Positions 7,392 through 25,500 are shown, counted from the first letter of the stretch. The stretch is 64,000 nucleotides of DNA from an uncultured Acidobacteriota bacterium (GCA_963841905.1 CAWJEM010000023.1:984-64983), one strand, 5' to 3'. Notes: a model not told the origin generated them from the letters alone. Numbers and translations: made by a program.

Positions 7392-7769
7392 GCGGAAGAC
7401 TCGCTACAAACTACGAATCACTGCTGCGAGGGTCCATAGCCGTGCCGACGCCACCGTTCCGACTGAAACGACCCACGAGAATCGTTGTCCCCGAGCACGC
7501 GGTCGCATCAAGAATATCGACAACAGAATCGAAGCTACCCCGCCCATGGAAATGATGGTGGATAGACTCCACCGACGCGGAGGGAATACGCGTGAACGGC
7601 GACAACGTCGACTATCACGAGGGCCGCAACGGCCTTCAGCAATTGATTGCTCCAGCCGCACCTTCGGTAGGCTGGGGTAGCTGCAGCATACGAGCGCCCC
7701 ACATTCGCGTGACACGGTGACGACGGTGCCAGGACTGTCAAGTAACGTCTGATCGACTAGGATTCTCAG

Positions 7770-8477
7770 GTGCAGAGCGAGTTCTCTCTTCGGCCGGGCA
7801 CAAACGACGACGTGATCTACACGAACGTTGTCGCGCGGAACGAATATCGCGTTCCCGAGGACATGTCAGGCGCGGTCGTGATCGACGTCGGCATGCACAT
7901 CGGCGCCTTCAGCCACTTGGCGCTCACGCGGGGCGCCGCGGAGCTGCATGGCTTCGAGCCCGAGGCGTCTAACTATTTGTGCGCTGTGCAAAACCTGGCG
8001 CCGTTCGGCGCACGCGTTCATCTCCACGATCGTGCAGTCTGGCGGTCGGACATCGCCGCGCCGGCGCTGCATTTCTGGCGCTCTACAGATGACGCGAACG
8101 CGGGAGGTGGCACGCTGATCTGGGATACGGACGGACCGCTTGTCGACGTCGTGTCATTCGATGACGTGGTTGACACGATTAGCGAGAACGGCAGACGCCG
8201 CATCAGCCTGCTCAAGATCGACTGTGAAGGCGCCGAATTCCCAATCCTCCTGACGTCCAACCGTCTCGGCCGCATCGATCGGATCGTCGGCGAATACCAC
8301 GAGTTGCGCGCGGAGCTACCGCAACACGTACGGCTTCCTGGCTGCGAGCAGTTCACCGTGGAGATCCTTGCGGCGCACCTCGAAACTTTCGGCTTCGCGG
8401 TCACTCTGGAACAGCAGGCGACGGCGACATTCGGCGCGCTCGGACTGTTCTTCGCCGAGCGCAGCCCGCGACGCTGA
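7770..8477 (+). CDS. FkbM-family SAM-dependent methyltransferase
   Basis: GTG start. Glycine-rich SAM motif VVIDVGMHIGAFS and an overall FkbM-like pattern. Flanked by roughly 380 and 450 bp of non-coding DNA that looks lower in GC. Confidence 0.7.
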   Translation: MQSEFSLRPGTNDDVIYTNVVARNEYRVPEDMSGAVVIDVGMHIGAFSHLALTRGAAELHGFEPEASNYLCAVQNLAPFGARVHLHDRAVWRSDIAAPALHFWRSTDDANAGGGTLIWDTDGPLVDVVSFDDVVDTISENGRRRISLLKIDCEGAEFPILLTSNRLGRIDRIVGEYHELRAELPQHVRLPGCEQFTVEILAAHLETFGFAVTLEQQATATFGALGLFFAERSPRR

Positions 8478-8926
8478 GGAGGCCCGCTGCTGGAGTCCGC
8501 CTGCCTCGAGCTTCGGTGCCCTCGGCGAAGCCAGCCGTAGCTGACTCACGATTCAGTCGAGCGGAGGAGGCTGGCGAGCCGCACAGGAATCGAACCAATC
8601 CCGGCCGACCTTCGCCCGCCCCGAATCACTCCTGACTGGTCGCCAAAGGTTTACCTATCCGTTCGAGGTCGCGGATCGCGCCGTTCGGTCGGTGTGCCAC
8701 CAGTTCGAGAAAATCTGTCGCGTCGTGCCGACGGAGTAGCAGGGAGCTCGCCCGGTCACCAACTGTCCGGCCTGGCAGACGAGCGCTGTGAAGGGATCCA
8801 AATGTGAGCCCCGGACGGAACGTCTCTTCGCGACCACCGCGGTTTCGATACGCGACTGCGGCGCTTCGAGATGCGCACCGTGTGGGAACGCCAGTTAGTC
8901 GTGTTCGATACTTACGCTTGGCAACT

Positions 8927-9943
8927 TTATTGAGTGGTTGTCCGCGAGACCTTCGGGGCCACGAGTATGCGCTTGGGCCCTGTTCCTCGGGCGAACTGAA
9001 TGTTCGTCAGGACCTTGCGCGTGTTGATGTCGATCGCCGCCACCGCGTGCGAGTCCCAGAGGCTCACAAAGAGGACTTGACCGTCCGGTCTGACCGTGAA
9101 CCAGTGCGGAAACTTGCCGACGCGAATCTGTGCGATCTCCTTGAAATCACTAGTTCGCACGATTCGCACGAGATCGTTGACGCAATCTGTCACCCAGAGC
9201 TCGGTCTCGTTCTTCACGAGCTGAAGCGCGTGCGTATAGGTGTTGAGGTAGGGCTTCGGCACTCCGTCAGGGAGCTGTGCGAGCTCCACGCGTTTCGTCA
9301 CCGCACGCTTTTCTGGATCGACGACCACAAAGCCAATCAGGTGAGAGAGTGCGGTGTAGATGATCTTACCGTCGTGAGTGGGCTCGAGCGGGCGTACGCC
9401 ATCGCTCGTCGGGATTTGATGGAGTAGCGACTGCGTCGCTGGATCAAACACGGCGACCGCGTTGCCGTACTGTGCGCCGACATAGATGCGCGAGCCGTCT
9501 GCCGACGTGTAAGCGTCGTGCGGTCCTTCGTTCATCGGGATTTTCTTCACGAGCTTCAACGGATCGAGCTGGATGATTGCAACCGAGTTCTCTCCGCGCA
9601 TCGGCATGTAGGCGAAGCGCCCATCTTTGGTCAGCGTCATCTGGTTGGGATCTTTGCCCAATGGGATCTGGGCCTCGACCTTTCCCGAGCGGGCATCGAT
9701 CACCTGGAAGTTCCCGGTGCGGTCGCTCCCGATGTAAACCTTCGATCCATCAGAGGACGTCGCCAGGCCGTGCGGGCGCGGGTCGGTCGTGATGCGCCGG
9801 ACTTCTTTGAACGTGTAGGCGTCGACTTCGACCAGTTGATCCGAGTCGCCGAGCGTGACCCAGAGGGTGACGCCGCGCTCCTGCGCACGGATCGCCAGAC
9901 AACATGCAACAACAATCGCCGCAGCGCCGAGGCACCTTCGCAT
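8927..9943 (-). CDS. Secreted YVTN/cytochrome-D1-like beta-propeller protein
   Basis: Signal peptide MRRCLGAAAIVVACCLAIRAQ from ATG 9943. That start is conserved in copy 2, whereas GTG 9970 is not. Repeated blades: SSDGSKVYIGS, TKDGRFAYMPM, SADGSRIYVGA, THDGKIIYTAL, RPDGQVLFVSL. Confidence 0.75.
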   Translation of the reverse strand: MRRCLGAAAIVVACCLAIRAQERGVTLWVTLGDSDQLVEVDAYTFKEVRRITTDPRPHGLATSSDGSKVYIGSDRTGNFQVIDARSGKVEAQIPLGKDPNQMTLTKDGRFAYMPMRGENSVAIIQLDPLKLVKKIPMNEGPHDAYTSADGSRIYVGAQYGNAVAVFDPATQSLLHQIPTSDGVRPLEPTHDGKIIYTALSHLIGFVVVDPEKRAVTKRVELAQLPDGVPKPYLNTYTHALQLVKNETELWVTDCVNDLVRIVRTSDFKEIAQIRVGKFPHWFTVRPDGQVLFVSLWDSHAVAAIDINTRKVLTNIQFARGTGPKRILVAPKVSRTTTQ

Positions 9944-9970
9944 GGCGCTCGATCTTACGCCAGGAGCCAC

Positions 9971-11131
9971 TCACCCCTTGGGTTTGGGGTCCTTCGGCTT
10001 CAAATCGAGCTTCGGATAGTACGGCTCGTCGAGCTTCTGGAATTTCTCCAGCCATTTTGGTCCGGCTTCACCGGGCGTGAAGCTCCAGTCCTGCCGGTGA
10101 TAGTTCCAGTCGGTGGGATTCAGTTGTTGGGCACGCGCGAAGTACTTCTTCGCTCGCTCGACATCGCCTGCCTGCTGGAACCAAGCGGCCAGTGCAAAGC
10201 TCGCGTCGGCTTCCATCTCGGCCGGTGTGCGTGGCTTGACCCGTCGAGCAAACTCGTCGTCTGACAGCGCATAAATGCTTCGGTCTCCCCTGGCAATCCA
10301 GTCGCGGATGGCTGCCACGTATTCTTCACCTTCGGTCACCAACGGCTTGCCCGCGAAGGTGCTCGTTCGACTGGTCGTCCAGGCGGGCTCCCCAGGTCGT
10401 ACGACGCGTCCTCGCTCGTCGATCCAGACCCCGGTGGGGACATTCGTGAATTGAAAGGCCGAACTCACGGCGTGGTTGGCGTCGATGAGCGTCGTGAAGG
10501 TCGCTTTGGCGGCCTCGTACCATTTTCCCGCTGCCGCTTCGCCGCCCGTATCCTGCGCCGCCGCGATGATCTCGAAGTTCGCGTTCTTGAGCTCGTCGTA
10601 CAGTGTCTGCCAGCCTGGCAGATCAAGTCGGCATCCTCACCAGGAAGCCCACGTGACCAAGAGCACTTTCTTGCCGCGGAATTGCGACAGGCGAACGAGA
10701 CGGCCGGTGCGATCGGGCACCGAGACCTCGGGCGCGATGCGCGACTCGAGGAAGGAGCCACGGACGACGGGCATCTCGCCGAAGCTCCACACCCGGGCGG
10801 CGGGATCCGCAACCACGCTCTGCCCTGCTCGCCGCGCGAACGCCGTGAGGTCGAACTGGTCGCCTCGGATCATGGTCGACGGGACCGGGATGCAAACATC
10901 AGCGCGGCAGGCACCCTCCGGCTTCAGTTCGAATTCATTGATCCGGGGGAGATCAGTCTTCAGGATCCACAGCGAGTCAGGAACGCCCCCTGGGTCTGGC
11001 CTGACATCACTCAAGGTGACGGCGCGACCGTCGTACAACACGGCAGCCCCGGGCGTCGGCTGACCGTCACGTAGCGCAGATGGCACCAGCGCCGCAGCTC
11101 CAACCGCTTTCAAGAACTCTCGTCGCTCCAC
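9971..11131 (-). CDS. Tat-exported thioredoxin-fold (TlpA/ResA-like) selenoprotein, W-A-S-W-U-G-C motif; in-frame TGA at 10637-10639 read as Sec
   Basis: ORFs 10637..11218 and 9971..10468 share a frame and are separated only by the TGA. Read-through gives ..KKVLLVTWASW-U-GCRLDLPGWQTLYDELKNANFEIIAAAQD..NVPTGVWIDERGRVV. The likely GTG start is at 11131 (M-ERREFLKAVGAAAL twin-arginine signal, GAGG upstream); the maximal ORF starts at 11218. Confidence 0.8.
10607..10621 (-). promoter_or_regulatory. Candidate SECIS-like hairpin CUGCCAGGCUGGCAG
   Basis: Perfect 5-6 bp stem starting 15 nt 3' of the in-frame UGA, with a G/U-containing apical loop. It is identical in the second copy at 16273-16287. 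Confidence 0.5.
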
Positions 11132-11153
11132 AGCCGACCTCGCCTCTGTTAAA

Positions 11154-11166
11154 GGGGACTGTCCCC
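11154..11166. promoter_or_regulatory. GGGGACTGTCCCC palindrome upstream of the selenoprotein gene
   Basis: On the minus strand it reads TAAAAT-GGGGACAGTCCCC, 22 nt upstream of GTG 11131. Confidence 0.45.
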
Positions 11167-11304
11167 ATTTTATTGTTAACCAACTCGTCCCAGAAGATGA
11201 AGTCTCGACAAGCTTCACGCATTATCTGCGAGGTCTGTCGACGCCGCGAGCGCACAATCCGCCGCGAATCGGCAGATTCGTCGATAACTGGTTAACCATA
11301 TAAA

Positions 11305-11317
11305 GGGGACAGTCCCC
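11305..11317. promoter_or_regulatory. GGGGACAGTCCCC palindrome upstream of the YcaQ-like gene
   Basis: Preceded by TATAAA (11299-11304) and ends 5 nt before ATG 11323. Confidence 0.45.
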
Positions 11318-11322
11318 GGACA

Positions 11323-12444
11323 ATGACCACACTCAACGACATGCGGCGACTTGCGGTTCGTCGCAGTCTTTTCGACCCGACCACACTCGACCGCGCCCTC
11401 GATGCGCTGGGGTTCGTACAAGCCGATCCCATCCGTGCGCCAGCCCGGGCCCAGGATCTGACGCTTCGCCCACGTGTCATCGGCTATCGCGCCGGCGATC
11501 TCGAGCGGCTCTACGCGAACCTGCCAATTGAAGAGGACGTCTTCATCAACTACGGGTTCGTGACTCGAACGCTGCAGGCCCTGATGCACCCGCGAACCGG
11601 CGCGTCGCTGCTGCCAACCGCAAGAAACAAGCGCGCACAGTCAGTGCTGGCGTTTGTCCGAGAGCGCGGCGCGGTGCACCCGCGCGACGTGGACGCGCAG
11701 TTCGCCCATGGCACAGTCACGAACTATTGGGGCGGCTCCTCGAATGCGACGACGCGCTTGCTTGAGGCGATGCACTACAAGGGATTGCTCCGCGTCGTTC
11801 GTCGTGAAGGCGGTATCCGGATCTATGGCGCGCACGCGCATGCCCCCGGGCCGGTCGGCATCAACGCTCGTCGCCATCACATCGACGCCATTGTCGACAT
11901 CGTGGTTCGCAAGTACGCGCCACTACCCGCCGCGAGCCTGTCCAATGTTGTGGCACGCCTTCGCTACGCCGTCCCGCAGTGGCGGAGTGAACTGCCATCG
12001 GCGTTGCAGCGGGCGAAGCAGCGACTGTTGCACGCTCGAATCGACGGCGTGGATTGGTATTGGCCTGCCGGCGACGAACCACGACGCGACGCAGTACCTG
12101 AGGTCGTTCGCTTGCTGGCACCATTCGATCCGGTCGTGTGGGATCGGCGCCGCTTCGAGATGTTGTGGGGCTGGGCCTACCGTTTCGAAGCCTACACGCC
12201 AGTTCCAAAGCGTAAGCTTGGCTACTACGCCCTGCCGATGCTCTGGCGCGATCGGGTGGTGGGATGGGGGAATGTCGCGATGGCTGCCGACGGGCTCAAA
12301 GCGGCGTTCGGCTATGTCGCGGGACACGCCCCGCGCAGCCGCGCGTTCGCACTCCAACTGGGGGCAGAAGTGGAGCGGCTGCGAGCCTTCCTGGAGAGCG
12401 ACCCGAATCCTCCAAGCGATGGCCTAAACCCGTGGTCCAGTTGA
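11323..12444 (+). CDS. YcaQ/AlkZ-like winged-helix protein (DUF1006; putative DNA crosslink-repair glycosylase)
   Basis: 373 aa. Contains FVQADPI (a Q-x-D type motif as recalled for YcaQ) and YTPVPKRKLGYYALPMLWRDRVVG, typical of this family. Confidence 0.75.
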   Translation: MTTLNDMRRLAVRRSLFDPTTLDRALDALGFVQADPIRAPARAQDLTLRPRVIGYRAGDLERLYANLPIEEDVFINYGFVTRTLQALMHPRTGASLLPTARNKRAQSVLAFVRERGAVHPRDVDAQFAHGTVTNYWGGSSNATTRLLEAMHYKGLLRVVRREGGIRIYGAHAHAPGPVGINARRHHIDAIVDIVVRKYAPLPAASLSNVVARLRYAVPQWRSELPSALQRAKQRLLHARIDGVDWYWPAGDEPRRDAVPEVVRLLAPFDPVVWDRRRFEMLWGWAYRFEAYTPVPKRKLGYYALPMLWRDRVVGWGNVAMAADGLKAAFGYVAGHAPRSRAFALQLGAEVERLRAFLESDPNPPSDGLNPWSS

Positions 12445-12463
12445 ATTGAGACGAAACGCAACA

Positions 12464-12512
12464 CCAAGCACACGAAGGATTTCCTTGGATTTCTTCGTGG
12501 CCTTCGTGTTGG
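12464..12512. terminator. Hairpin between convergent genes built on CACGAAG / CTTCGTG units
   Basis: CCAAGCACACGAAGG (12464-12478) pairs with CCTTCGTGTTGG (12501-12512), and an additional CTTCGTG lies in the loop. It sits between the stops at 12444 (+) and 12554 (-). Confidence 0.45.
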
Positions 12513-12553
12513 ATTTTCTCGTTTCTCGAGTGAGTCTCAGGATAGGCCGCTGA

Positions 12554-14971
12554 CTACTCTGTCCGTAGCGCTTGCACCGGATCGATGCGCGCGGCACGCA
12601 GGGCCGGTACCAACGCGGCCACCGCTCCAACGCCAACGATTGCAAGGCCGCTGATAACGTAGGTCACGAGATCGAGCGACGGAACACCGAAGAGAAGACT
12701 CTGAAGCGATCGACCAGCGACCGCAGCGCCCGCTAACCCGAGAGCGACCCCCAGCAGGACGATCTTCAACGCACCACCCACCACCAACCGGAAGGTCCCC
12801 GGGGCGTCGGCGCCGAGCGCCATTCGGACTCCGATCTCAGCGGTTCGCCGAGCGACGGAGTAGGTCACAACGCCGTAGACACCAACCGCAGCCAGCAGTG
12901 CAGCGCACAAGGCAAGCGACACGAGGAGCGTCATGTTGAACCGTGGCTGGGCGATGGATCCCGACACGAGATCTTCGATCTTCGAAACCTTGACGATCGG
13001 CAGCGCCGGATCGAGCGCCGCCAGCTCGCGCTTGACACCCTGCACGATCGCATCGGCCCCTTCCGTCGAGGCGATGACAATCTGCATCTCGGTGAGCGGA
13101 AACTGAAAATACGGCACGAACACTTCGGCCTGCGCATTGCCCTGAAGCCCATCGTGCTTGATGTCAGCAACCACGCCAACGATGTGCAGATCGCCGGCCA
13201 TCGGCATCTTCACGCGCTGCCCGATGGGATCGACGGCACTGAAGTACCGCTTGACGACCGACTCATTGACGATGGCGACCTTCGGACCGTTTTCTCGTCC
13301 ATCGAACCGATCGAATGCTCGGCCTCTCGTCAGCCGGATCCCCATCGTCTGGAAGTAATCGCCAACCACCGCGCGATAGCGGGCACGGGGACGTTCGGTC
13401 GGCGATGTGGTCTCGAGCCCCTCGATCGTGAACGGCAGGTCGAACTGAACGCCGAGCGGACTCATCGGCAGAGCAGAGACCGCCGCGGCACGCCCGACAC
13501 CGTGGACGTCCTTGACTCGTTCGACGAGGGTGTCGAATAACTGGCGCTTCGAAGACGGATCGGGATAGCGGCTCGCCGGCAAGGCGATATGGGCCGCAAT
13601 CACGTTCGATGTGCGGTAGCCCGGGTCCACCGATGTCAAGTGGGCGAAACTTCGAATCAGCAGACCCGCACTGACGAGCAACATGAGCGCGAGCGCAACC
13701 TCGGCTGCGACCATCATGTTGGAAAAGCGTCGAGTGGCGCGACTGGCAGTCGCTCCACGGCTGGCGTCCTGCAGGATCTCGACGAGGTTGGGTCGCATGG
13801 CACGCCATGCCGGGACAAGACCGACGAGCAGCCCCGAAACGATGGTTGTGATGGCCGTGAACCCAAGGACCGGCAGATCGAGACCGATGCTGTAGGCGCG
13901 CGGTACGTTTGGCGGAATCAATGGACGTAACAGCACCGTCCCCCACCACGCCAGCAGCAGCCCGACAACCCCGCCAGCGAGCGTGAGGATGCTGCTCTCG
14001 ACCAGCGATCGCCGAACCAGTGCCCAACGGCTAGCGCCGAATGCGGCGCACAAGGCGAACCCCTTGGCGGCGCTCGAGGATCGCGCGAGCAAGAGGTTCG
14101 CGATGTTGGCGCAGGCGATCACGAGGACCAGCACGACCGCGCCAAACAGCACCCACAGTGTTTCGCCGATCCGGCCAACCACTTGCTCGTGCGCGGGAAC
14201 GAGCGTGACGCCCCACCCGGTGTTCGATTCAGGATTCTCGCGCGCGATCGCCGCGCTGATCGACGCCATCTCTTGTCGCGCCTGCTCGATCGTCACGCCG
14301 GGCGCCAATCGGCCCACTGCCTGATAGAGGCGATGCGGCCGTGAAGCCAGCGCGCCCAGGTTGAGCGTGAGCGGTGACCACAGCTCTACGTCGGGATCGC
14401 TCGCCGGAAATTGAAAGTCGCGAGGCATGACACCCACGATCGTGTGCGAGGCATCGTCGAGTGCCATGACTCTGCCGAGAACGTTCGGATCTCCTCCGAA
14501 GCGGCGGACCCACGCGCCGTGACTCAACACGACCTGCCGCGAGTCGGTCCCGGGATTTTCCTCGGCGTCCGTGAACGTCCGACCCAGGAGCGGGGGCACG
14601 CTCAGCGCTCGAAACAGCACGGGCGATACGTCGACGGTGATCAGTCGTTCGGCCTCGCCAGCGCCGGTCAGCGTGTAGCCGCGGTATCGAAAGATCCCAA
14701 TGCCTGTGAAGGTGCGGGTCCGTGCGCGCCAATCCAGATGGGTCGCAGCCGCAACCTGTGAACGGTCGATTCCCTGCGATGCGTTGGTTTCCCAGATGCC
14801 GACCAGCTGCTCAGGCTCGCCATAGGCCAGCGGCCGGAGCAAGACACCATTGAGGACACTGAAGATCGTGGAATTGACACCAATCGCCAGGCCCAGCGTC
14901 AACACGATGACGGCGGCAAATCCAGGATTCGTGGAGAGGAACCGCATCGCCTCGCGAATGTCGTTTTTCAC
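12554..14971 (-). CDS. ADOP-family duplicated FtsX/MacB-like ABC transporter permease (copy 1)
   Basis: 805 aa with a GTG start. The N-terminus ..FLSTNPGFAAVIVLTLGLAIGVNSTIFSVLNGVLLRPL.. and two FtsX-type modules are typical of acidobacterial duplicated orphan permeases. Confidence 0.9.
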   Translation of the reverse strand: MKNDIREAMRFLSTNPGFAAVIVLTLGLAIGVNSTIFSVLNGVLLRPLAYGEPEQLVGIWETNASQGIDRSQVAAATHLDWRARTRTFTGIGIFRYRGYTLTGAGEAERLITVDVSPVLFRALSVPPLLGRTFTDAEENPGTDSRQVVLSHGAWVRRFGGDPNVLGRVMALDDASHTIVGVMPRDFQFPASDPDVELWSPLTLNLGALASRPHRLYQAVGRLAPGVTIEQARQEMASISAAIARENPESNTGWGVTLVPAHEQVVGRIGETLWVLFGAVVLVLVIACANIANLLLARSSSAAKGFALCAAFGASRWALVRRSLVESSILTLAGGVVGLLLAWWGTVLLRPLIPPNVPRAYSIGLDLPVLGFTAITTIVSGLLVGLVPAWRAMRPNLVEILQDASRGATASRATRRFSNMMVAAEVALALMLLVSAGLLIRSFAHLTSVDPGYRTSNVIAAHIALPASRYPDPSSKRQLFDTLVERVKDVHGVGRAAAVSALPMSPLGVQFDLPFTIEGLETTSPTERPRARYRAVVGDYFQTMGIRLTRGRAFDRFDGRENGPKVAIVNESVVKRYFSAVDPIGQRVKMPMAGDLHIVGVVADIKHDGLQGNAQAEVFVPYFQFPLTEMQIVIASTEGADAIVQGVKRELAALDPALPIVKVSKIEDLVSGSIAQPRFNMTLLVSLALCAALLAAVGVYGVVTYSVARRTAEIGVRMALGADAPGTFRLVVGGALKIVLLGVALGLAGAAVAGRSLQSLLFGVPSLDLVTYVISGLAIVGVGAVAALVPALRAARIDPVQALRTE

Positions 14972-14980
14972 GGCGCTCTT

Positions 14981-15613
14981 TTATACCTCGACGACCACAA
15001 AGCCGATCAGGTGAGAGAGTGCGGTGTAGATGATCTTGCCGTCGTGAGTGGGCTCGAGCGGGCGCACGCCATCGCTCGTCGGGATTTGATGGAGTAGCGA
15101 CTGCGTCGCTGGATCAAACACGGCGACCGCATTGCTGTACTGTGCGCCGACATAGATGCGCGATCCGTCTGCCGACGTGTAAGCGTCGTGCGGTCCTTCG
15201 TTCATCGGGATTTTCTTCACGAGCTTCAACGGATCGAGCTGGATGATTGCAACCGAGTTCTCTCCGCGCATCGGCATGTACGCGAAGCGCCCATCTTTGG
15301 TCAGCGTCATCTGGTTGGGATCTTTGCCCAATGGGATCTGGGCCTCGACCTTTCCCGAGCGGGCGTCGATCACCTGGAAGTTCCCGGTGCGGTCGCTCCC
15401 GATGTAAACCTTCGATCCATCAGAGGACGCCGCCAGGCCGTGCGGGCGCGGGTCGGTCGTGATGCGCCGAACTTCTTTGAACGTGTAGGCGTCGACTTCG
15501 ACCAGTTGATCCGAGTCGCCGAGCGTGACCCAGAGGGTGACGCCGCGCTCCTGCGCACGGATCGCCAGACAACATGCAACAACAATCGCCGCAGCGCCGA
15601 GGCACCTTCGCAT
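14981..15613 (-). pseudogene. 3'-truncated copy of the beta-propeller gene (cut by the duplication junction)
   Basis: Same signal peptide and the first ~205 residues as 8927..9943, then ..SHLIGFVVV-EV-stop where the full copy continues DPEKRAVTKRV. ATG at 15613. Confidence 0.8.
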
Positions 15614-15636
15614 GGCGGTCGATCTTACGCCACCAC

Positions 15637-16797
15637 TCACCCCTTGGGTTTGGGATCCTTCGGCTTCAAATCGAGCTTCGGATAGTACGGCTCGTCGAGC
15701 TTCTGGAATTTCTCCAGCCATTTTGGTCCGGCTTCACCGGGCGTGAAGCTCCAGTCCTGCCGGTGGTAGTTCCAGTCGGTGGGATTCAGTTGTTGGGCAC
15801 GCGCGAAGTACTTCTTCGCTCGCTCGACATCGCCTGCCTGCTGGAACCAAGCGGCCAGCGCAAAGCTCGCGTCGGCTTCCATCTCGGCCGGTGTGCGCGG
15901 CTTGACCCGTCGAGCAAACTCGTCGTCTGACAGCGCATAAATGCTTTGGTCTCCCCTGGCAACCCAGTCGCGGATGGCTGCCACGTATTCTTCACCTTCA
16001 GTCACTAACGGCTTGCCCGCGAAGGTGCTCGTTCGACTGGTCGTCCATGCGGGCTCCCCGGGTCGTACGACGCGTCCTCGCTCGTCGATCCAGACGCCGG
16101 TGGGGACATTCGTGAATTGAAAGGCCGAGCTCACGGCGTGGTTGGCGTCGATGATGGTCGTGAAGGTCGCTTTGGCGGCGTCGTACCATTTTCCTGCTGC
16201 CGCTTCGCCGCCCGTATCCTGCGCCGCCGCGATGATCTCGAAGTTGGCGTTCTTGAGCTCGTCGTACAGTGTCTGCCAGCCTGGCAGATCAAGTCGGCAT
16301 CCTCACCAGGAGGCCCACGTGACTAAGAGCACTTTCTTGCCGCGGAATTGCGACAGGCGAACGAGACGGCCGGTGCGATCGGGCACCGAGACCTCGGGCG
16401 CGATGCGCGACTCGAGGAAGGAGCCACGGACGACGGGCATCTCGCCGAAGCTCCACACCCGGGCGGCGGGATCCGCAACCACGCTCTGCCCTGCTCGCTG
16501 CGCGAACGCCGTGAGGTCGAACTGGTCGCCTCGGATCATGGTCGACGGGACCGGAATGCAAACATCAGCGCGGCAGGCACCCTCGGGCTTCAGTTCGAAT
16601 TCATTGATCCGGGGGAGATCATTCTTCAGGATCCACAGCGAGTCAGGAACGCCCCCGGGGTCCGGCCGGACGTCACTCAAGGTGACGGCGCGACCGTCGT
16701 ACAACACGGTAGCCGCGGGCGTCGGCTGACCCTGACGTAGCGCAGATGGCACCAACGCCGCAGCGCCAACCGCTTTCAAGAACTCTCGTCGCTCCAC
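15637..16797 (-). CDS. Second copy of the thioredoxin-fold selenoprotein; in-frame TGA at 16303-16305
   Basis: ORFs 16303..16884 and 15637..16134 are in the same frame. The W-A-S-W-TGA-G-C context is retained with synonymous changes on the flank (TTG>TTA, GCT>GCC). GTG start at 16797. Confidence 0.8.
16273..16287 (-). promoter_or_regulatory. Candidate SECIS-like hairpin (copy 2)
   Basis: Identical CUGCCAGGCUGGCAG, 15 nt downstream of the UGA at 16303-16305. Confidence 0.5.
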
Positions 16798-16819
16798 GGC
16801 CGACCTCGCCTCTGTTAAA

Positions 16820-16832
16820 GGGGACTGTCCCC
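16820..16832. promoter_or_regulatory. GGGGACTGTCCCC palindrome (copy 2)
   Basis: Same context as 11154-11166. Confidence 0.45.
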
Positions 16833-16970
16833 ATTTTATTGTTAACCAACTCGTCCCAGAAGATGAAGTCTCGACAAGCTTCACGCATTATCTGCGAGGT
16901 CTGTCGACGCCGCGTGCGCACAATCCGCCGCGAATCTGCCGATTCCTCGACAACTGGTTAACCATATAAA

Positions 16971-16983
16971 GGGGACAGTCCCC
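16971..16983. promoter_or_regulatory. GGGGACAGTCCCC palindrome (copy 2)
   Basis: Preceded by TATAAA and ends 5 nt before ATG 16989. Confidence 0.45.
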
Positions 16984-16988
16984 GGATA

Positions 16989-18092
16989 ATGACCACCCTC
17001 AAAGACATGCGGCGACTTGCGATTCGTCGCAGTCTTTTCGACCCGACCACACTCGACCGCGCCCTCGATGCGCTGGGGTTCGTACAAGCCGATCCCATCC
17101 GTGCGCCAGCCCGGGCCCAGGATCTGACGCTTCGCCCACGTGTCACCGGCTATCGCGCCGGCGATCTCGAGCGGCTCTACGCGAACCTGCCAATTGAAGA
17201 AGACGTCTTCATCAACTACGGGTTTGTGACTCGAACGCTGCAGGCCCTGATGCACCCGCGAACCGGCGCGTCGCTGCTGCCAACCGCAAGAAACAAGCGC
17301 GCACAATCAGTGCTGGCGTTTGTCCGAGAGCGCGGCGCGGTGCACCCGCGCGAGGTGGACGCGCAGTTCGCCCATGGCACCGTCACCAACTATTGGGGCG
17401 GCTCCTCGAACGCGACGACGCACTTGCTTGATGCGATGCACTACAAGGGATTGCTCCGCGTCGTTCGTCGTGAAGGCGGTATCCGCATCTATGGCGCGCA
17501 CGAGCATGTCCCCGGGCCGGTCGGCGTCAACGCTCGACGCCATCACATCGACGCCATCGTCGACATCGTCGTTCGCAAGTACGCGCCACTACCCGCCGCG
17601 AGCCTGTCCTATGTTGTGGCACGCCTTCGCTACGCCGTCCCGCAGTGGCGGAGTGAACTGCCATCGGCGTTGCAGCGGGCGAAGCAGCGACTTTCGCACG
17701 CTCGAATCGACGGCCTGGATTGGTATTGGCCTTCCGGCGACGAACCACGACACGACTCCGTACCTGAGGTCGTTCGCTTGCTGGCACCATTCGATCCGGT
17801 CGTGTGGGATAGGCGCCGCTTCGAGATGTTGTGGGGCTGGGCCTACCGTTTCGAAGCCTACACGCCAGTTCCAAAGCGTAAGCTCGGCTACTACGCCCTG
17901 CCGATGCTCTGGCGCGATCGTGTGGTGGGATGGGGGAATGTCGCGATAACTGCTGACGGGCTCAAAGCGGCGTTCGGCTATGTCGCGGGACACGCCCCGC
18001 GCAGCCGCGCGTTCGCACTCCAACTGGAGGCGGAAGTGGAGCGGCTGCGAGCCTTCCTGGAGAGGACCCGGATCCTCCAAGCGCTGGCCTAA
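16989..18092 (+). CDS. YcaQ/AlkZ-like winged-helix protein (copy 2)
   Basis: 367 aa, about 95% identical to copy 1 by eye. A 1-nt difference near 18065 changes the last ~12 residues and the stop position. Confidence 0.75.
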   Translation: MTTLKDMRRLAIRRSLFDPTTLDRALDALGFVQADPIRAPARAQDLTLRPRVTGYRAGDLERLYANLPIEEDVFINYGFVTRTLQALMHPRTGASLLPTARNKRAQSVLAFVRERGAVHPREVDAQFAHGTVTNYWGGSSNATTHLLDAMHYKGLLRVVRREGGIRIYGAHEHVPGPVGVNARRHHIDAIVDIVVRKYAPLPAASLSYVVARLRYAVPQWRSELPSALQRAKQRLSHARIDGLDWYWPSGDEPRHDSVPEVVRLLAPFDPVVWDRRRFEMLWGWAYRFEAYTPVPKRKLGYYALPMLWRDRVVGWGNVAITADGLKAAFGYVAGHAPRSRAFALQLEAEVERLRAFLERTRILQALA

Positions 18093-18119
18093 ACCCGTGG
18101 TCCAGTTGAATTGAGACGA

Positions 18120-18205
18120 AACGCAACACGAAGCGCACGAAGCACACGAAGGATTTCCCTGGATTTCTTCGTGGCCTTCGTGGCCTTCATGGCCTTCGTG
18201 TTGGA
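18120..18205. terminator. Expanded CACGAAG / CCTTCGTG repeat hairpin between convergent genes
   Basis: Three CACGAAG units (18127-18152) face four CTTCGTG-like units (18166-18204). The copy-1 equivalent has fewer units. Confidence 0.45.
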
Positions 18206-18244
18206 TTTTCCCCTACTCCAGTAAGTCTCAGGGTAGGTCGCTGA

Positions 18245-20662
18245 CTACTCTGTCCGTAGCGCTTGCACCGGATCGATGCGCGCGGCACGCAGCGCCGGTA
18301 CCAACGCGGCCACCGCTCCAACGCCAACGATTGCAAGGCCGCTGATGACGTAGGTCACGAGATCGAGCGACGGAACACCGAAGAGAAGACTCTGAAGCGA
18401 TCGGCCAGCGACCGCAGCGCCCGCTAACCCGAGAGCGACCCCCAGCAGGACGATCTTCAACGCACCACCCACCACCAACCGGAAGGTCCCCGGGGCATCG
18501 GCACCGAGCGCCATTCGGACTCCAATTTCAGCGGTTCGCCGAGCGACAGAGTAGGTCACAACGCCGTACACACCGACCGCCGCCAGCAGTGCAGCGCACA
18601 GGGCAAGCGACACGAGGAGCGTCATGTTGAACCGTGGCTGGGCGATGGATCCCGACACGAGATCTTCGATCTTCGAAACCTTGACGATCGGCAGCGCCGG
18701 ATCGAGCGCCGCCAGCTCGCGCTTGACACCCTGCACGATCGCATCGGCCCCTTCCGTCGAGGCGATGACAATCTGCATCTCGGTGAGCGGAAACTGAAAA
18801 TACGGCACGAACACTTCGGCCTGCGCATTGCCCTGAAGCCCATCGTGCTTGATGTCAGCAACGACGCCAACGATGTGCAGATCGCCGGCCATAGGCATCT
18901 TCACGCGCTGCCCGATGGGATCGACGGCACTGAAGTACCGCTTGACGACCGACTCATTGACGATGGCGACCTTCGGACCGTTTTCTCGTCCATCGAACCG
19001 ATCGAATGCGCGGCCTCTCGTCAGCCGGATCCCCATCGTCTGGAAGTAATCGCCAACCACCGCGCGATAGCGGGCACGGGGACGTTCGGTCGGCGATGTG
19101 GTCTCGAGCCCCTCGATCGTGAACGGCAGGTCGAACTGAACGCCGAGCGGACTCATCGGCAGAGCAGAGACCGCCGCGGCGCGCCCGACACCGTGGACGT
19201 CTTTGACTCGTTCGACGAGGGTGTCGAACAACTGGCGCTTCGAAGACGGATCGGGATAGCGGCTCGCCGGCAACGCGATATGGGCCGCAATCACGTTCGA
19301 TGTGCGGTAGCCCGGGTCAACCGATGTCAAGCGTGCGAAACTTCGAATCAGCAGACCCGCACTGACGAGCAACATGAGCGCGAGCGCAACTTCGGCGGCG
19401 ACCATCATGTTGGAAAAGCGTCGAGTGGCGCGACTGGCGGTCGCTCCACGGCTGGCGTCCTGCAGGATCTCGACGAGGTTGGGTCGCATGGCACGCCATG
19501 CCGGGACAAGACCGACAAGAAGTCCCGATGCGATGGTTGTGATGGCCGTGAACCCGAGCACCGGCAGATCGAGACCGATGCTGTAGGCGCGCGGCACGTT
19601 TGGCGGAATCAATGGACGTAACAGCACCGTCCCCCACCACGCCAGCAGCAGCCCGACAACCCCGCCGGCGAGCGTGAGGATGCTGCTCTCGACCAGCGAT
19701 CGCCGAACCAGTGCCCAACGGCCAGCGCCGAATGCGGCGCACAAGGCGAACCCCTTGGCGGCGCTCGAGGATCGCGCGAGCAAAAGGTTCGCGATGTTGG
19801 CGCAGGCGATCACGAGGACCAGCACGACCGCGCCAAACAGCACCCACAGTGTTTCGCCGATCCGGCCAACCACTTGCTCGTGCGCGGGAACGAGCGTGAC
19901 GCCCCACCCGGCGTTCGATTCAGGATTCTCGCGCGCGATCGCCGCGCTGATCGACGTCATCTCTTGTCGCGCCTGCTCGATCGTCACGCCGGGCGCCAAT
20001 CGGCCCACTGCCTGATAGAGGCGATGCGGCCGTGAAGCCAGCGCCCCCAGGTTGAGTGTGAGGGGTGACCACAACTCAACGTCGGGATCGCTCGCCGGAA
20101 ACTGAAAGTCGCGAGGCATGACGCCCACGATCGTGTGCGAGGCGTCGTCGAGTGTCATGACTCTGCCGAGAACGTTCGGATCTCCTCCGAAGCGGCGGAC
20201 CCACGCGCCGTGGCTCAACACGACCTGACGCGAGTCGGTCCCGGGATTTTCCTCGGCGTCCGTGAACGTCCGGCCCAGAAGTGGGGGCACGCTCAGCGCT
20301 CGAAACAGCACGGGCGACACGTCGACGGTGATCAGTCGTTCGGCCTCGCCAGCGCCGGTCAGCGTGTAGCCGCGGTATCGAAAGATTCCAATGCTTGTGA
20401 AGGTGCGGGTCCGGACGCGCCAATCCAGATGGGTCGCAGCCGCAACCTGTGAACGGTCGATTCCCTGCGATGCGTTGGTTTCCCAGATGCCGACCAGCTG
20501 CTCAGGCTCGCCATAGGCCAGCGGCCGGAGCAGGACGCCATTCAGGACGCTGAAGATCGTGGAATTGACGCCAATCGCCAGGCCCAGCGTCAACACGATG
20601 ACGGCTGCAAATCCAGGATTCGTGGAGAGGAACCGCATCGCCTCGCGAATGTCGTTTTTCAC
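18245..20662 (-). CDS. ADOP-family duplicated FtsX/MacB-like ABC transporter permease (copy 2)
   Basis: 805 aa. It differs from copy 1 at 8 residues, counted from the provided translations. Confidence 0.9.
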   Translation of the reverse strand: MKNDIREAMRFLSTNPGFAAVIVLTLGLAIGVNSTIFSVLNGVLLRPLAYGEPEQLVGIWETNASQGIDRSQVAAATHLDWRVRTRTFTSIGIFRYRGYTLTGAGEAERLITVDVSPVLFRALSVPPLLGRTFTDAEENPGTDSRQVVLSHGAWVRRFGGDPNVLGRVMTLDDASHTIVGVMPRDFQFPASDPDVELWSPLTLNLGALASRPHRLYQAVGRLAPGVTIEQARQEMTSISAAIARENPESNAGWGVTLVPAHEQVVGRIGETLWVLFGAVVLVLVIACANIANLLLARSSSAAKGFALCAAFGAGRWALVRRSLVESSILTLAGGVVGLLLAWWGTVLLRPLIPPNVPRAYSIGLDLPVLGFTAITTIASGLLVGLVPAWRAMRPNLVEILQDASRGATASRATRRFSNMMVAAEVALALMLLVSAGLLIRSFARLTSVDPGYRTSNVIAAHIALPASRYPDPSSKRQLFDTLVERVKDVHGVGRAAAVSALPMSPLGVQFDLPFTIEGLETTSPTERPRARYRAVVGDYFQTMGIRLTRGRAFDRFDGRENGPKVAIVNESVVKRYFSAVDPIGQRVKMPMAGDLHIVGVVADIKHDGLQGNAQAEVFVPYFQFPLTEMQIVIASTEGADAIVQGVKRELAALDPALPIVKVSKIEDLVSGSIAQPRFNMTLLVSLALCAALLAAVGVYGVVTYSVARRTAEIGVRMALGADAPGTFRLVVGGALKIVLLGVALGLAGAAVAGRSLQSLLFGVPSLDLVTYVISGLAIVGVGAVAALVPALRAARIDPVQALRTE

Positions 20663-20948
20663 GGCGCTCTTTTATACCTCGACGAGGTGCATACGGGGCT
20701 GTTCGATCAATCCGATGAAAAGCGACTGGCGCTGTGGAACCACTGGAACGACAAGCTTCCACAGAACCCCTTCGTCCTCCGACAGCTTCGAGCGCAACCG
20801 GCTTCAACTCAATAGGTTACGGTCTGGGCAGTTCTACGCTTCCTACACGATCTGCACAGCGCTTGAAATTTTTTTTCGTGAAGTGTCGTAATTGGCCGTC
20901 CGAAGTCGATCTACCAGTTAGCGCCTCGATACGCACTGGAGGTTCGAC

Positions 20949-22490
20949 ATGTGGTCAACGACACGTTTGCCGTCGTCTGAATGGGCAGTCGCAGTCCGGG
21001 TTTCGGTTCTCTGCGTTGGTCTGTACGTGACGATCGGCACCGCAATCGCTTCAGGACAGCAGCCCGCCGCAGCTGCCACAACCTCGGACCACTTCGGGCG
21101 AATGTTCAACAATCTGCCACCGTTCGCGCCACAAAACCCCAGGGTCACGGAGGCGCTGATCGAGCTCGGGAGGCCCGGTGGCCTCATGGACGCCAACGAC
21201 GACCTGGACGCCGGCGCCTTCGAGCTGATCGTAAACCCGTTGCTCAACCTCCAAAATCCCAACAACGACGCTCATACGGCCGGCGTCACGTTCATGGGTC
21301 AGTTCCTCGACCACGACATGACGTTCGACACGACGTCTCGACTTGGCCAGCCCGCCAACCCGCGGACGTCGCGCAACTCGAGACGTCCGTACTTCGACCT
21401 GGACTCCGTCTACGGTGATGGTCCGGTCGGTTCGCCGCTGCTTTACGAGGCCTCGGATCGCGCGAAGCTGAAGGTTGAATCAAACGGGCCGTTCGAAGAT
21501 CTGCCGCGGGATGTCAACGGCACGGCCGTGATCGCCGATCCGAGGAACGACGAGAACCTTGTCATCAGTGGTCTTCAAGCGGCCTTTCTCCTCTTCCACA
21601 ATCGCGTCGTCGATCTCATTCGCGATGAGCATCCTGCGTGGGAAAGCGAGGACGTCTTCCGGGCGGCGCGGCGGCTTACGACCTGGCATTACCAGTGGAT
21701 GATTCTTCACGAGTTCGTGCCCGCTTTCACCGGCGCAGGAATGGTGAACGACGTGCTCGCGAACGGGTGCCGCTTCTACCAGCCGGAGAACGGCCACGCC
21801 TTCATTCCGGTCGAGTTCCAGATGGCCTACCGCTTTGGGCACAGCATGGTGAGGCCGTCCTATCGGGCGAACTTTACGGGCAGCGCCGGTGGCGCATTCT
21901 TTGCGATGCTCTTCGAAAGTCAAAATGGCACTGGTGAACCCAGCGATCTACGGGGTGGCTTCCGAAGTCCGCGGCGGTTCATCGGTTGGCAAACGTTCTT
22001 CCGATTCCCTGGCTTCGAAAGCGACGTGCGGCCCAACAAGCGTCTCGACACCAAGCTCTCGACGCCGCTTTTCGACTTACCACTCGGGGCCATCGCGTCA
22101 GGAGCACCTCCCACATCGCTGGCTGCGCGCAACCTTCTCCGCCACCTCACCTGGAAGCTGCCTTCCGGACAGATGATTGCCGAGGCCATGGGCGCTCCGG
22201 TGTTGACGGCAGCTCAACTTGCTGATCTGCAAACGATCTATCCACCGTTTGTCACTTCGACGCCGCTCTGGTTCTACGTGCTGAGAGAAGCCGACATCCT
22301 CGGTAATGGCGCTCACCTGGGACCGGTCGGCGGCCGCATCGTCGCTGAAGTCTTCATCGGATTGCTGCAGGCGGACCCGAACTCGTTCCTGAATCAGGAA
22401 CCACTGTTCACCCCCACGCTGGGTGAATCACCGGGCTCATTTGCCATGATTGATTTCCTGCGAGTTGCGGGCGTCTCGCCCAAGCGCTGA
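20949..22490 (+). CDS. Animal-type heme peroxidase family protein
   Basis: Motifs FMGQFLDHDMTF (distal His region), ADPRNDENLVISGLQAAFLLFHNRVV and FQMAYRFGHSMV (proximal His region). Confidence 0.8.
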   Translation: MWSTTRLPSSEWAVAVRVSVLCVGLYVTIGTAIASGQQPAAAATTSDHFGRMFNNLPPFAPQNPRVTEALIELGRPGGLMDANDDLDAGAFELIVNPLLNLQNPNNDAHTAGVTFMGQFLDHDMTFDTTSRLGQPANPRTSRNSRRPYFDLDSVYGDGPVGSPLLYEASDRAKLKVESNGPFEDLPRDVNGTAVIADPRNDENLVISGLQAAFLLFHNRVVDLIRDEHPAWESEDVFRAARRLTTWHYQWMILHEFVPAFTGAGMVNDVLANGCRFYQPENGHAFIPVEFQMAYRFGHSMVRPSYRANFTGSAGGAFFAMLFESQNGTGEPSDLRGGFRSPRRFIGWQTFFRFPGFESDVRPNKRLDTKLSTPLFDLPLGAIASGAPPTSLAARNLLRHLTWKLPSGQMIAEAMGAPVLTAAQLADLQTIYPPFVTSTPLWFYVLREADILGNGAHLGPVGGRIVAEVFIGLLQADPNSFLNQEPLFTPTLGESPGSFAMIDFLRVAGVSPKR

Positions 22491-22566
22491 TGAACGAATG
22501 GAGGGCCGCCGGGATCGCAAGCGGGCTTGTGTTAGCGTCTACTCGACCGAAACGTCGAGGACGCTC

Positions 22567-25500
22567 ATGAAACGAACGATGCTTGCCCTGGCGGTCGCGT
22601 GCGCCGCCTTCGCTGTCAACGCCCAGGAGCCTGCATCCACCGGAGACGCGCGGGAGCAGGATCCTTGGGCACCCGCGACCTTCGCCGATTTTCGACTGCG
22701 TGCGATTGGCCCCGCTCTGATGTCCGGCCGGATCAGCCAAATCGCCATCCATCCCGAGAGCAAGCAGACCTGGTACATCGGCGTGGCGTCCGGAGGCGTG
22801 TGGAAAACCACGAACGCCGGCATCACTTTCACGCCAGTCTTTCAGAACGAAGGCAGCTACTCCATCGGCACCGTTGTCGTCGATCAGAAGCACCCGGCCA
22901 CGATCTGGGTTGGCACCGGCGAGGCCAACAATCAGCGGAGCGTCGGCTACGGCGACGGCATCTATCGAAGCGACGATGCTGGTCGGACGTGGCGGAATCT
23001 GGGACTCAAAACGTCCGAGCACCTCGGACGCATCGTCATCGATCCACGTGATTCGAACGTGGTGTTCGCGGCCGCCTACGGTCCGTTGTGGAGGGCGGGC
23101 GGCGAACGCGGCCTGTACAAAACCACAGATGGCGGCGCCAACTGGAGCCGAAGTGCTCGAGATCAGCGAGAACACCGGCATCAGCGACGTCGCGATCGAT
23201 CCCGCGAATCCGGACGTGATGCTCGCCGTCGCGCATCAGAGACGACGGCATACCTGGACGTTGATTCACGGAGGACCCGAAAGCGGTCTGCACAAGTCGA
23301 TGGACGGCGGCAAGACCTGGCGGCGAATCCGTGCCGGCCTTCCGAGCGAGGACGTCGGCCGCATCGTGATCACGTTTTCAGCCGCCCAAAAAGGTCTCGT
23401 CTACGCGAAGGTGGAGTCCTCTGGACAGCCGGTGGCGCTCTATGCGTCGCTCGACTCCGGCGACAGCTGGGAGCGGCGCGGTAACGTGCAAGCGCAGCCG
23501 ATGTATTACAAGAACATTCACGCCGACCCGAAGGATCCCGACCGGGTGTATGTGCCGAGCGTGCAGACGCAAATCTCTGAAGATGGCGGGCGCACGTTCT
23601 CCCAACTCGGCGAGCGCAACAAGCACGTCGACAACCACTACCTCTGGATCGATCCCGACGACACGAATCATTTGCTCGAGGGGTGTGACGGAGGGCTGTA
23701 CGAAAGCTGGGATCGCGGCCGCCTCTGGCGTCACTTCACCAATCTCTCGGTGACCCAGTTCTACAATGTCGAGGTCGACAACGCGGCGCCAATCTATAAC
23801 GTCTACGGCGGGACACAGGACAACGCCACGTTGGGCGGCCCGTCGCGATCACGCACTCCGGACGGCGCGACCAACAACGACTGGTTCATCGTCACCGGCG
23901 GCGACGGCTTCGTGGCCCGGGTCGACCCGACCGATCCGAGCATCGTCTACGCCGAGTCGCAGTACGGCGGCATCGTCCGACTCGATCGACGGACGAGCGA
24001 GCGCGTGAACATCCGGCCAATCGAGGGCAAGGACGAAGCGGCGCTCCGCTTCAACTGGGAATCGCCCTTTGTGATCAGCCCGCACAGTCCCTCGCGACTG
24101 TATTTCGGCGCCAGTCGACTCTTTCGCAGCGACGATCGCGGCAACAGCTGGCGCGCCGTCAGCCCGGACCTTACTCGCCAGACCGACCGCAACCTTTTGC
24201 CGGTCATGGGTCGCGTGTGGCCGCCCGAAGCCGTCGCCCAGCATCAGTCGACGGCCACCTGGGGCAACATCTCAGCGCTCAGCGAGTCACGCAAGCGCGA
24301 AGGTGTGCTGTACACCGGAACGGACGATGGCGTGATTCAGTTTTCGCTCGATGGCGGCGCCAACTGGCGGAAGAGCGAGAACCCGCCAGGGCTACCCGAC
24401 TACGGCTCGTACGGCGTGTATGTGCAACGCTTGCAGGCGTCGAAGATCGACGAGAACGTGGTGTATGCGTTGTACGAGAACACCAAGAACGGCGACTTCA
24501 AGCCGTACATTTACAAGAGCACCAATCGAGGCGGGAGCTGGACCTCAATCGCCGGCGATCTGCCGGCCAACGGACCGGCGCTCGCCTTCGCGGAGGACCA
24601 CGTCAACCCGAACCTCCTGTTCGTCGGCACCGAGTTCGGCCTGTTCTTCACGGTGGACGGCGGGAACAAGTGGATTCGCTTGCGCACGAACCTTCCGACC
24701 ATCCCCGTGCGCGACCTTGCGATTCAAGAACGCGAGAACGATCTGGTGCTGGCGACGTTCGGCCGCGGTTTCTACGTCCTCGACGACTACTCGCCGCTGC
24801 GACAACTGACCGCGGACCTGTTTCAAAAGGACGGGCAGGTCTTTCCCGCCAAGCCGGCGGTGATTGAAGTGCCTGAGACCGGCAAGGCGCGTGGGTCCCA
24901 GGGCGAGCAACACTGGATGGCCGAGAACCCAGCGGAGGGTGCCGTGATTACTTACTGGGTTCGGGAATCGCCGCGCACCCTGCGTCAGCGCCGGCAGGAT
25001 GCCGCGCGTGGCGCGGAGCAGAAGAAGGCGACGCCGGCATATCCATCTCAAACCGACATCACGGCTGAAGAAGACGAAGAAGCGCCGCAGACGTTTCTGA
25101 CGATTAGCGACGCGTCCGGCAAGGTCGTGCGGAGACTCGTCGTCCCCGGCACCCGAGGCATTCACCGCTTTGCCTGGAATCTCCGTGGCGTGCCGGCAAC
25201 GCTCCCGGGCGCCGGTGGCGCGGTGGCCTGGCGGCGGGGGCGGCGGTCAAGGCGGGGCCGCGGGCGGCCCGTTCGTGCCGCCAGGGACCTATCGCGCATC
25301 GCTGTCGCGTCGATCCGGCGGGGTCACAACCGCACTCGGCGAAGCGCAGGCCATTACGGTCTCGGCCGATCCAGGAGTGACTTTGACACCGGCTGCGCGC
25401 ACCGCCGCGATCGAGTACCAGGACAAAGTCGCGAAGCTCCAGCGGGCCTTCACGGGTGCGCTCGAACAGGCGAACAACATGAAGACGCGCACGACTGCCA

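Follow-up and report, generated by a model that had tools for sequence, protein, structure and literature searches.

Probable strain alleles of one locus in head-to-tail order at a 7-bp microhomology in an uncultured Acidobacteriota bacterium: inter-strain recombination or strain mixing in the assembly

Background

Bacterial tandem duplication at short microhomologies, a RecA-independent process, leaves behind a characteristic arrangement: a head-to-tail repeat with the short sequence present once at the junction and once at each edge, a truncated gene, and relatives in which the locus is single. An arrangement alike in all these respects occurs in a 64,000-nucleotide stretch of DNA from an uncultured Acidobacteriota bacterium (GCA_963841905.1 CAWJEM010000023.1:984-64983; hereafter the window, with positions counted from its first letter), where each of two units of about 5.7 kb holds the 5' part of a YNCE-type beta-propeller gene, a candidate selenoprotein gene of the AhpC/TSA-Redoxin type, an AlkZ/YcaQ-like gene (below, YcaQ) and a gene for an ADOP permease. 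Copies that arise in this way start out identical and are hence sisters, whereas here each copy is nearer to the single-copy locus of another sample. Using related contigs, we trace the two units to what are very probably two natural strain lineages, and weigh whether the alleles were joined in one chromosome or brought together during assembly.

Among the processes known to bring together DNA of two origins, homology-facilitated illegitimate recombination (HFIR) has been described for Streptococcus pneumoniae, Acinetobacter baylyi, Pseudomonas stutzeri and Escherichia coli conjugation; its joints typically lie at 3-10 bp of microhomology and its insertions are coupled to deletions (PMC3240628). 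The locus resembles HFIR in that DNA of two origins meets at a microhomology within this range, with the switch of lineage at the joint, and in that an insertion (unit 2) is possibly coupled to a deletion, that of a cassette coding for ankyrin-repeat (Ank), extracytoplasmic-function (ECF) sigma factor and Ser-Thr kinase proteins, although two related contigs (L166 and L168, introduced below) are also devoid of this cassette and show no repeat. It departs from HFIR in that the "foreign" DNA is 97% homologous to the resident and could have recombined legitimately, in the length of the insert (5.7 kb versus a cited average of ~1 kb; PMC3240628), and in that the anchoring crossover is not located with the references L167 (2.7 kb) and L166 (to position 25726). 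The merodiploids formed during transformation of S. pneumoniae (PMC3784515) provide a looser precedent, in which exogenous DNA likewise triggers a tandem duplication carrying two alleles; those duplications span 100-900 kb and have repeat borders derived from insertion sequences, whereas the present one spans 5.7 kb and has a 7-bp microhomology and no insertion sequence. Long-read metagenome assemblies can also concatenate haplotypes, placing two subpopulation versions in series as imperfect direct repeats much like those seen here (bioRxiv 10.1101/2025.04.22.649783). Such artefacts are recognised by read clipping and missing read support, and no microhomology is expected in them, yet one is present at this locus.

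Results and discussion

Architecture of the repeat and its junction

A BLAST comparison of the window with itself aligned 9318-14994 to 14988-20685; the alignment has 5703 columns, with 161 mismatches, 12 gap openings and an identity of 96.63%. A repeat search of the window recovered the same register with a spacing of 5665-5691. The units follow each other directly in head-to-tail order with no spacer between them, and the heptamer TCGACGA marks both outer edges and is present in a single copy at the novel junction (Table 1). This bears out the original prediction of a tandem pair of collinear copies with a 7-bp microhomology at its left end, at its junction and just past its right end; only the left start needs a correction, from 9317 to 9318, which shortens unit 1 from 5671 to 5670 bp. 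The junction reads ...CTCTTTTATACC-TCGACGA-CCACAAAGCC... and fuses the sequence upstream of an ADOP gene to the middle of a propeller gene.

The chance of an in-register 7-mer for a random pair of positions in the window is 1.4e-4. Moreover, immediately before the heptamer the two parental sites share 12 of 19 bases (P for at least 11 of 19 is ~0.011), so that the heptamer lies within a 26-nt homeologous patch with 19 of 26 bases identical. An assembler would have no reason to create a signature of this recombination type, and the matching patch thus argues for a real DNA join, as far as can be judged from the sequence, and against a join that is purely false.

Lineage affinities of the two units

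The closest named relatives of the window are Vicinamibacterales and uncultured Acidobacteriota. Eight related contigs were reached through the 90% protein-cluster members of YcaQ and ADOP: a 1-Mb long-read contig (L081), two contigs from JGI sample 3300086399 (L082 and L165), three from an ENA long-read series (L083, L164 and L168), a 10.5-kb MEGAHIT contig (L166) and a 2.7-kb SPAdes contig (L167). Three of these (L164, L166 and L167) end short of a boundary. A scan of a genome collection with ADOP gave 590 paralogue matches, of which the best was 68% identical, with no other gene of the window nearby and no synteny, and a scan of JGI metagenome contigs with YcaQ gave a single close relative on a 1.4-kb contig.

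Over the ADOP region, identity between the two units is 97.2%. Unit 1 shares 99.2% identity with L167, and unit 2 shares 98.6% with L082, 98.3% with L166 and 96.9% with L167. The units are hence not each other's closest relatives, as copies born identical would be. In the 2444 ADOP columns that all nine sequences cover, the split that groups unit 1 with L167 and unit 2 with L166 and L082 is supported by 37 sites, and there is not one site that unites the two units to the exclusion of these relatives; bootstrap values for the units being nearer to an outside relative than to their partner are 100%, 99.7% and 99.9%. Given that each unit is closer to an outside relative than to its partner, the ~3% divergence between them is that of strains and not the product of drift after duplication. 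We consider it very probable from these alignments that a single locus is represented here by orthologous alleles of two natural strain lineages, designated X (unit 1) and Y (unit 2). The comparison shows that the ~3% divergence arose in separate, functional single-copy loci and is older than the junction, contrary to the earlier proposal that the copies diverged after the duplication.

The flanks tell the same two lineages apart. L167 carries the unit 1 type of ADOP allele and, past TCGACGA, continues not into the junction but into its native Ank-type flank (GGTGGATAAAGG...). L166 is collinear with the window over 15207-25726, starting within unit 2 and continuing across the right flank, at ~2% divergence bar one hypervariable patch, and no switch between the window and this lineage Y reference is visible up to 25726, where L166 ends; the lineage X reference consists of the 2.7-kb L167 only. 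A single-copy arrangement, for which the relatives had been proposed as a source, was found in L081, L082, L083, L165 and L168. L081, L083, L165 and L168 show the locus with both flanks, and in L082 and L167 the ADOP gene is seen with its native upstream flank. The full single-copy order is seen in L168: peroxidase, ADOP, YcaQ, selenoprotein and full-length propeller. In L081, L082, L083 and L165 the Ank-repeat, ECF-sigma and Ser-Thr-kinase cassette, of 4-7 kb, lies between the ADOP and peroxidase genes; it is absent from the window, L166 and L168. Its breakpoint corresponds to position 20702 of the window, within the palindrome GGGGCTGTCCCC and 17 bp beyond the right unit edge.

Markers of the X type reach 14846-14915, and non-X states begin at 15005, placing the switch of lineage within 90 bp and at the junction. 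Unit 1 has private or X markers throughout 9335-14915, unit 2 is Y-like in every 500-bp interval, and each unit keeps cleanly to its own haplotype on either side of four identical stretches of 147-261 bp. The lineage-specific intergenic indels agree with the two-lineage pattern, as does a 9-bp repeat in the spacer between the convergent YcaQ and ADOP genes (12462-12520 and 18127-18215). The lineages differ in how many copies they have of this tandem repeat, TGGCCTTC(G/A), with one in unit 1 and L168, two in L167, three in unit 2, four in L166 and eight in L082.

Differences between the copies and selection on them

At the protein level the copies differ by 8 residues in ADOP and by 18 in YcaQ along with an altered C-terminus, in agreement with the first count made on this DNA, and by 10 residues rather than about 7 in the selenoprotein. 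The indels between the units comprise a 4-bp GGAG, changes in repeat number of 9 bp and of 18 bp, and two of 1 bp; a 9-bp indel (CACGAAGCG) adjoins the spacer tandem repeat. Small intergenic indels had been expected, and all but one are intergenic; the sole genic one is the loss of a G from a GGG run, which shifts the last residues of YcaQ copy 2. This frameshift (18063-18065) is private to unit 2 and may be a homopolymer sequencing error.

Synonymous and non-synonymous differences between the units were counted by the method of Nei and Gojobori. The ratio of non-synonymous to synonymous rates (dN/dS) was 0.05 for ADOP (55 synonymous and 8 non-synonymous), 0.13 for the selenoprotein (24 and 10), 0.34 for YcaQ (18 and 18) and 0.08 for the segment shared with the truncated propeller gene (8 and 2), with dS of 0.05-0.09 in all compared genes. 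The truncated propeller fragment contains no indels and no stops. Had one propeller copy decayed neutrally, ~62% of its differences would be expected to be non-synonymous, and two or fewer out of ten has a binomial P of ~0.009. Its 8 synonymous and 2 non-synonymous differences are thus unlike neutral decay since an old duplication, and the fragment is, by these counts, one that appears to have evolved under purifying selection. The divergence of the copies, which had been taken as a sign that the duplication is maintained, is no evidence of this: it is inherited from the two lineages, and dN/dS is low in the truncated propeller as well. Terminal-branch counts (synonymous/non-synonymous) were 40/15 for unit 1 and 12/9 for unit 2, as against 19/10 and 10/5 for the single-copy L166 and L082, and give no sign of relaxed selection after duplication in the units relative to these single-copy relatives. 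YcaQ alone is somewhat raised on the terminal branches (8 synonymous and 8 non-synonymous in one unit, 0 and 4 in the other), without reaching significance.

Among the private substitutions, G>A (as read on the plus strand) is over-represented: it makes up 12 of the 43 in unit 1, where C>T accounts for 5, and 12 of the 29 in unit 2, where C>T accounts for 4. Many of the private G>A changes lie in CG contexts, for example GACG>GACA and GGCGTC>GGCATC. Sequencing errors at methylation motifs were considered as their source and set aside, since despite the many CG contexts no single motif accounts for them. Within the 2.4-kb ADOP region, three of the five unit 1 substitutions that are absent from L167 (14858, 14879 and 14915) fall within 130 bp of the junction, and two of them are G>A; this clustering could reflect chance, error-prone repair synthesis at the join or a consensus error.

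Origin of the tandem arrangement

As to how the two alleles came to stand in series, we tentatively favour a genuine heteroallelic tandem that arose by inter-strain recombination and holds both alleles in one chromosome, a reading that on the sequence patterns falls just short of probable. The lineage X allele (unit 1, L167-like) would have been joined head-to-tail to the lineage Y allele (unit 2 and the right flank, L166/L082-like) at the microhomology; the junction would have been made in DNA by illegitimate, microhomology-mediated recombination, and the chromosome would be a heteroallelic merodiploid. This could have come about by HFIR (route a), in which a linear fragment of one lineage, anchored by homology on one side, would be joined at TCGACGA on the other; if Y DNA entered an X chromosome in this manner it would also replace the Ank, ECF-sigma and kinase cassette of X, amounting to an insertion plus a deletion. 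Alternatively (route b), a microhomology-mediated tandem duplication in lineage Y could have been followed by homologous replacement of its left copy by X DNA, and the exchange would stop where homology stops, namely at the junction. A switch from X to Y exactly at the junction, combined with clean haplotypes, is the pattern that would be expected of one molecule and not of a polishing mosaic. A more specific form of this reading, which we regard as possible but doubtful, is that, in a soil acidobacterium, DNA of another strain, ~3% divergent, was captured beside the resident copy by microhomology, giving a stable heteroallelic merodiploid, in effect permanently heterozygous, for the selenoprotein, the DNA glycosylase and ADOP, in which the first ADOP copy is rewired under the selenoprotein operon.

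A number of observations weigh against a genuine tandem. The linkage of X on the left and Y on the right across 14988 is known from the assembled contig alone, and the locus is single in all five contigs that span the ADOP upstream flank. The junction is seen in none of the eight related contigs, its 25-mer TTTATACCTCGACGACCACAAAGCC has no match in JGI metagenome contigs, and the chimeric truncated-propeller product, looked up exactly with three possible starts, is absent from the protein collection. No gene-conversion tracts between the units are detected among the ADOP columns, where sites exclusive to the pair are lacking, so co-residence has left no positive trace. Related lineages share a sample, L082 and L165 both coming from JGI 3300086399. 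L166 and L168 are already devoid of the Ank cassette and show no duplication, so that the coupling of insertion and deletion under route (a) is not required. To our knowledge, heteroallelic tandem repeats of 97% identity are rare in finished bacterial genomes.

The shared sample and the absence of the junction and of its product from the collections also fit with strain mixing in the assembly, in which the sample would contain both X and Y but no single genome would have the two alleles. We regard this as a serious possibility, if somewhat less than probable, and it was therefore premature to set aside an assembly cause. In one version, a recent, identical duplication exists in Y only and polishing overwrote its first copy with reads of a more abundant X; in another, the junction is false and results from the assembler having strung two haplotypes together. 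The assemblers metaFlye, metaMDBG, hifiasm-meta and HiCanu have been documented to concatenate subpopulation variants and to produce false duplications (bioRxiv 10.1101/2025.04.22.649783), which likewise counts against a tandem in one chromosome. Each unit is a clean allele of a different natural lineage, as concatenated haplotypes would be; frameshifts are numerous in the related contigs of the same ENA series, which are long-read assemblies; and the YcaQ frameshift in unit 2 is a homopolymer-length change typical of long-read data. Only 17 bp, moreover, separate the right unit edge from the point where X and Y differ in structure, one having the Ank cassette and the other not, and an assembly graph would branch there. 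The notion that both edges coincide with boundaries of strain homology was tried and fails on the left, where the unit edge lies in 99%-conserved sequence: identity of the window with L083 and L168 stays at 99% over more than 100 bp leftward of 9318. As for overwriting by polishing, a Y-Y repeat polished by X reads should presumably be a mosaic, and those X reads anchored on the right would fit copy 2 slightly better, yet the second ADOP copy is purely Y and the first purely X.

The model originally put forward, an old in-situ duplication at the microhomology with ~3% of later divergence and both copies kept by selection, accounts for the footprint at the junction and for the fact that all complete genes are intact in both copies with low dN/dS. 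We nevertheless hold it to be very improbable, as the units are not sisters and share no derived sites. L167 combines a unit 1 type ADOP with a native flank through TCGACGA, and a descendant of copy 1 could not have regained that flank; L168, L083, L081 and L165 have the locus in single copy with both flanks; and the truncated propeller, presumably of no use to the cell, departs from the neutral expectation with its intact frame and predominance of synonymous differences. A direct repeat of 5.7 kb is also expected to collapse quickly by homologous recombination, which counts against long persistence in situ. Least probable of all is a Campbell-type integration, in which a fragment circularised at TCGACGA would have entered the chromosome of the other lineage by a single homologous crossover. 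It is known that linear DNA entering a cell can circularise and then undergo one crossover (PMC3240628), and the microhomology would indeed fall at the junction, but each copy should then be chimeric and split at the crossover. Neither copy is chimeric, and the crossover would need to have fallen in the first 17 bp of the unit.

Significance

The kind of event is already known, be it tandem duplication, HFIR or a class of assembly error, and novelty is limited to a possible new natural example. If the heteroallelic tandem is real, the selenoprotein, the AlkZ-like glycosylase and the ADOP permease would each be present as two alleles in one genome, with the first ADOP copy separated from its own upstream region and transcriptionally fused to the second selenoprotein copy and the truncated propeller. 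The 3% mismatch should stabilise the repeat against RecA-mediated collapse relative to an identical duplication. Already-diverged gene duplicates would have been gained in one step by inter-strain recombination, in which case the divergence of tandem paralogues says nothing of the age of a duplication, nor does it prove selective maintenance. As far as we know, this would be the first environmental example of HFIR-like events building diverged tandem paralogues instantly. If the arrangement is an artefact, it is a worked example of how strains that occur together can give a metagenome-assembled genome what looks like an "old, maintained" duplication. Comparison of each copy with single-copy relatives is enough, without reads, to unmask a false "old duplication" of this kind, and in either case genome scans should check that copies are sister sequences before reading their divergence.

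Genes of the two units

Each unit contains the four genes originally described, with the 5' portion of the propeller gene measuring 62% where two-thirds had been given (Table 1).

Table 1. Coordinates of the repeat units, the microhomology sites and the genes of the locus
Feature	Positions	Strand	Remarks
Unit 1	9318-14987	.	5670 bp; probable lineage X allele
Unit 2	14988-20678	.	5691 bp; probable lineage Y allele, runs on unbroken into the right flank
TCGACGA, left parental site	9318-9324	+	within propeller gene
TCGACGA, novel junction	14988-14994	+	17 nt upstream of the GTG start of ADOP copy 1; X to Y switch within 14915-15005
TCGACGA, right parental site	20679-20685	+	upstream of ADOP copy 2
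26-nt homeologous patch	9299-9324	+	19/26 identical to 20660-20685 (7 exact and 12/19 upstream)
Partner of the 26-nt patch	20660-20685	+	matches 9299-9324
Last 17 bp in common with relatives	20686-20702	+	beyond it, Ank / ECF-sigma / kinase cassette in relatives; window and L166 without it
Full-length YNCE-type beta-propeller gene	8927-9943	-	338 aa, start MRRCLG
Truncated propeller copy	14981-15613	-	208 native codons, then junction-made Glu-Val-stop
AhpC/TSA-Redoxin and TPR selenoprotein candidate, copy 1	9971-11218	-	TGA 10637-10639, motif WASW-U-GC
Selenoprotein candidate, copy 2	15637-16884	-	TGA 16303-16305
AlkZ/YcaQ-like gene, copy 1	11323-12444	+	373 aa
AlkZ/YcaQ-like gene, copy 2	16989-18092	+	367 aa; one G missing from a GGG run alters the last residues
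ADOP permease, copy 1	12554-14971	-	native upstream region gone; downstream of truncated propeller
ADOP permease, copy 2	18245-20662	-	native upstream region kept

The ADOP permease matches the NCBIfam model TIGR03434 over residues 3-805 with 867 bits (cut-off 622), and thereby is a full-length member of this family, with two MacB_PCD and two FtsX domains in Pfam. Its first copy now lies behind the second selenoprotein copy and the truncated propeller, whose stop is 9 nt ahead of the GTG start of the permease gene. A sigma-70 promoter scan upstream of the second ADOP copy found none.

The in-frame TGA of the AhpC/TSA-Redoxin gene is conserved in all seven aligned sequences and is spanned by the Pfam AhpC-TSA/Redoxin domain, and the reading frame is kept after it, the dN/dS of 0.13 applying to all 415 codons. 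Where a SECIS element would be expected, a 7-bp hairpin begins ~17 nt past the UGA, with a fold z-score of only -0.17, which is not significant. A check of the 64-kb window for the selenocysteine machinery found tRNA-Gln alone. Gene callers split the candidate selenoprotein gene in two in every related contig.

In the full-length propeller gene, the last 170 bp (8927-9100) are hypervariable in all lineages. Its 3' part further contains six window-private substitutions within 49 bp (9149-9197), four of which are spaced at 3 bp (9149, 9152, 9155 and 9158); L083, L168 and L165 are 99-100% identical to one another over this tract, and the version in the window looks like a short import.

Other variable sites in the window

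To the left of the propeller gene, 7392-8926 is a window-specific segment coding for an FkbM-type methyltransferase (7770-8477) between a beta-lactamase-fold gene and the propeller gene. In the relatives this place is taken by PAP2, histidine-kinase or PagL genes or is empty, suggesting a strain-variable islet. The hypervariable patch of the right flank, 21207-21807, has 79 differences to L166 in 600 bp versus ~5 per 300 bp elsewhere in this flank; it lies within an animal-haem-peroxidase-like gene (20949-22490) and is either hypervariable or recombinant.

Farther along the window are two more pairs of similar genes, both of which look like ordinary paralogues. Adjacent glutaminase genes (55772-56701 and 57958-58887) share 79% DNA identity, and one of them is fused to a DcaP-like porin domain. 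The other pair (51299-52057 and 61335-62102), situated 10 kb apart, codes for proteins of 252 and 255 aa that have no Pfam match and are 91% identical.

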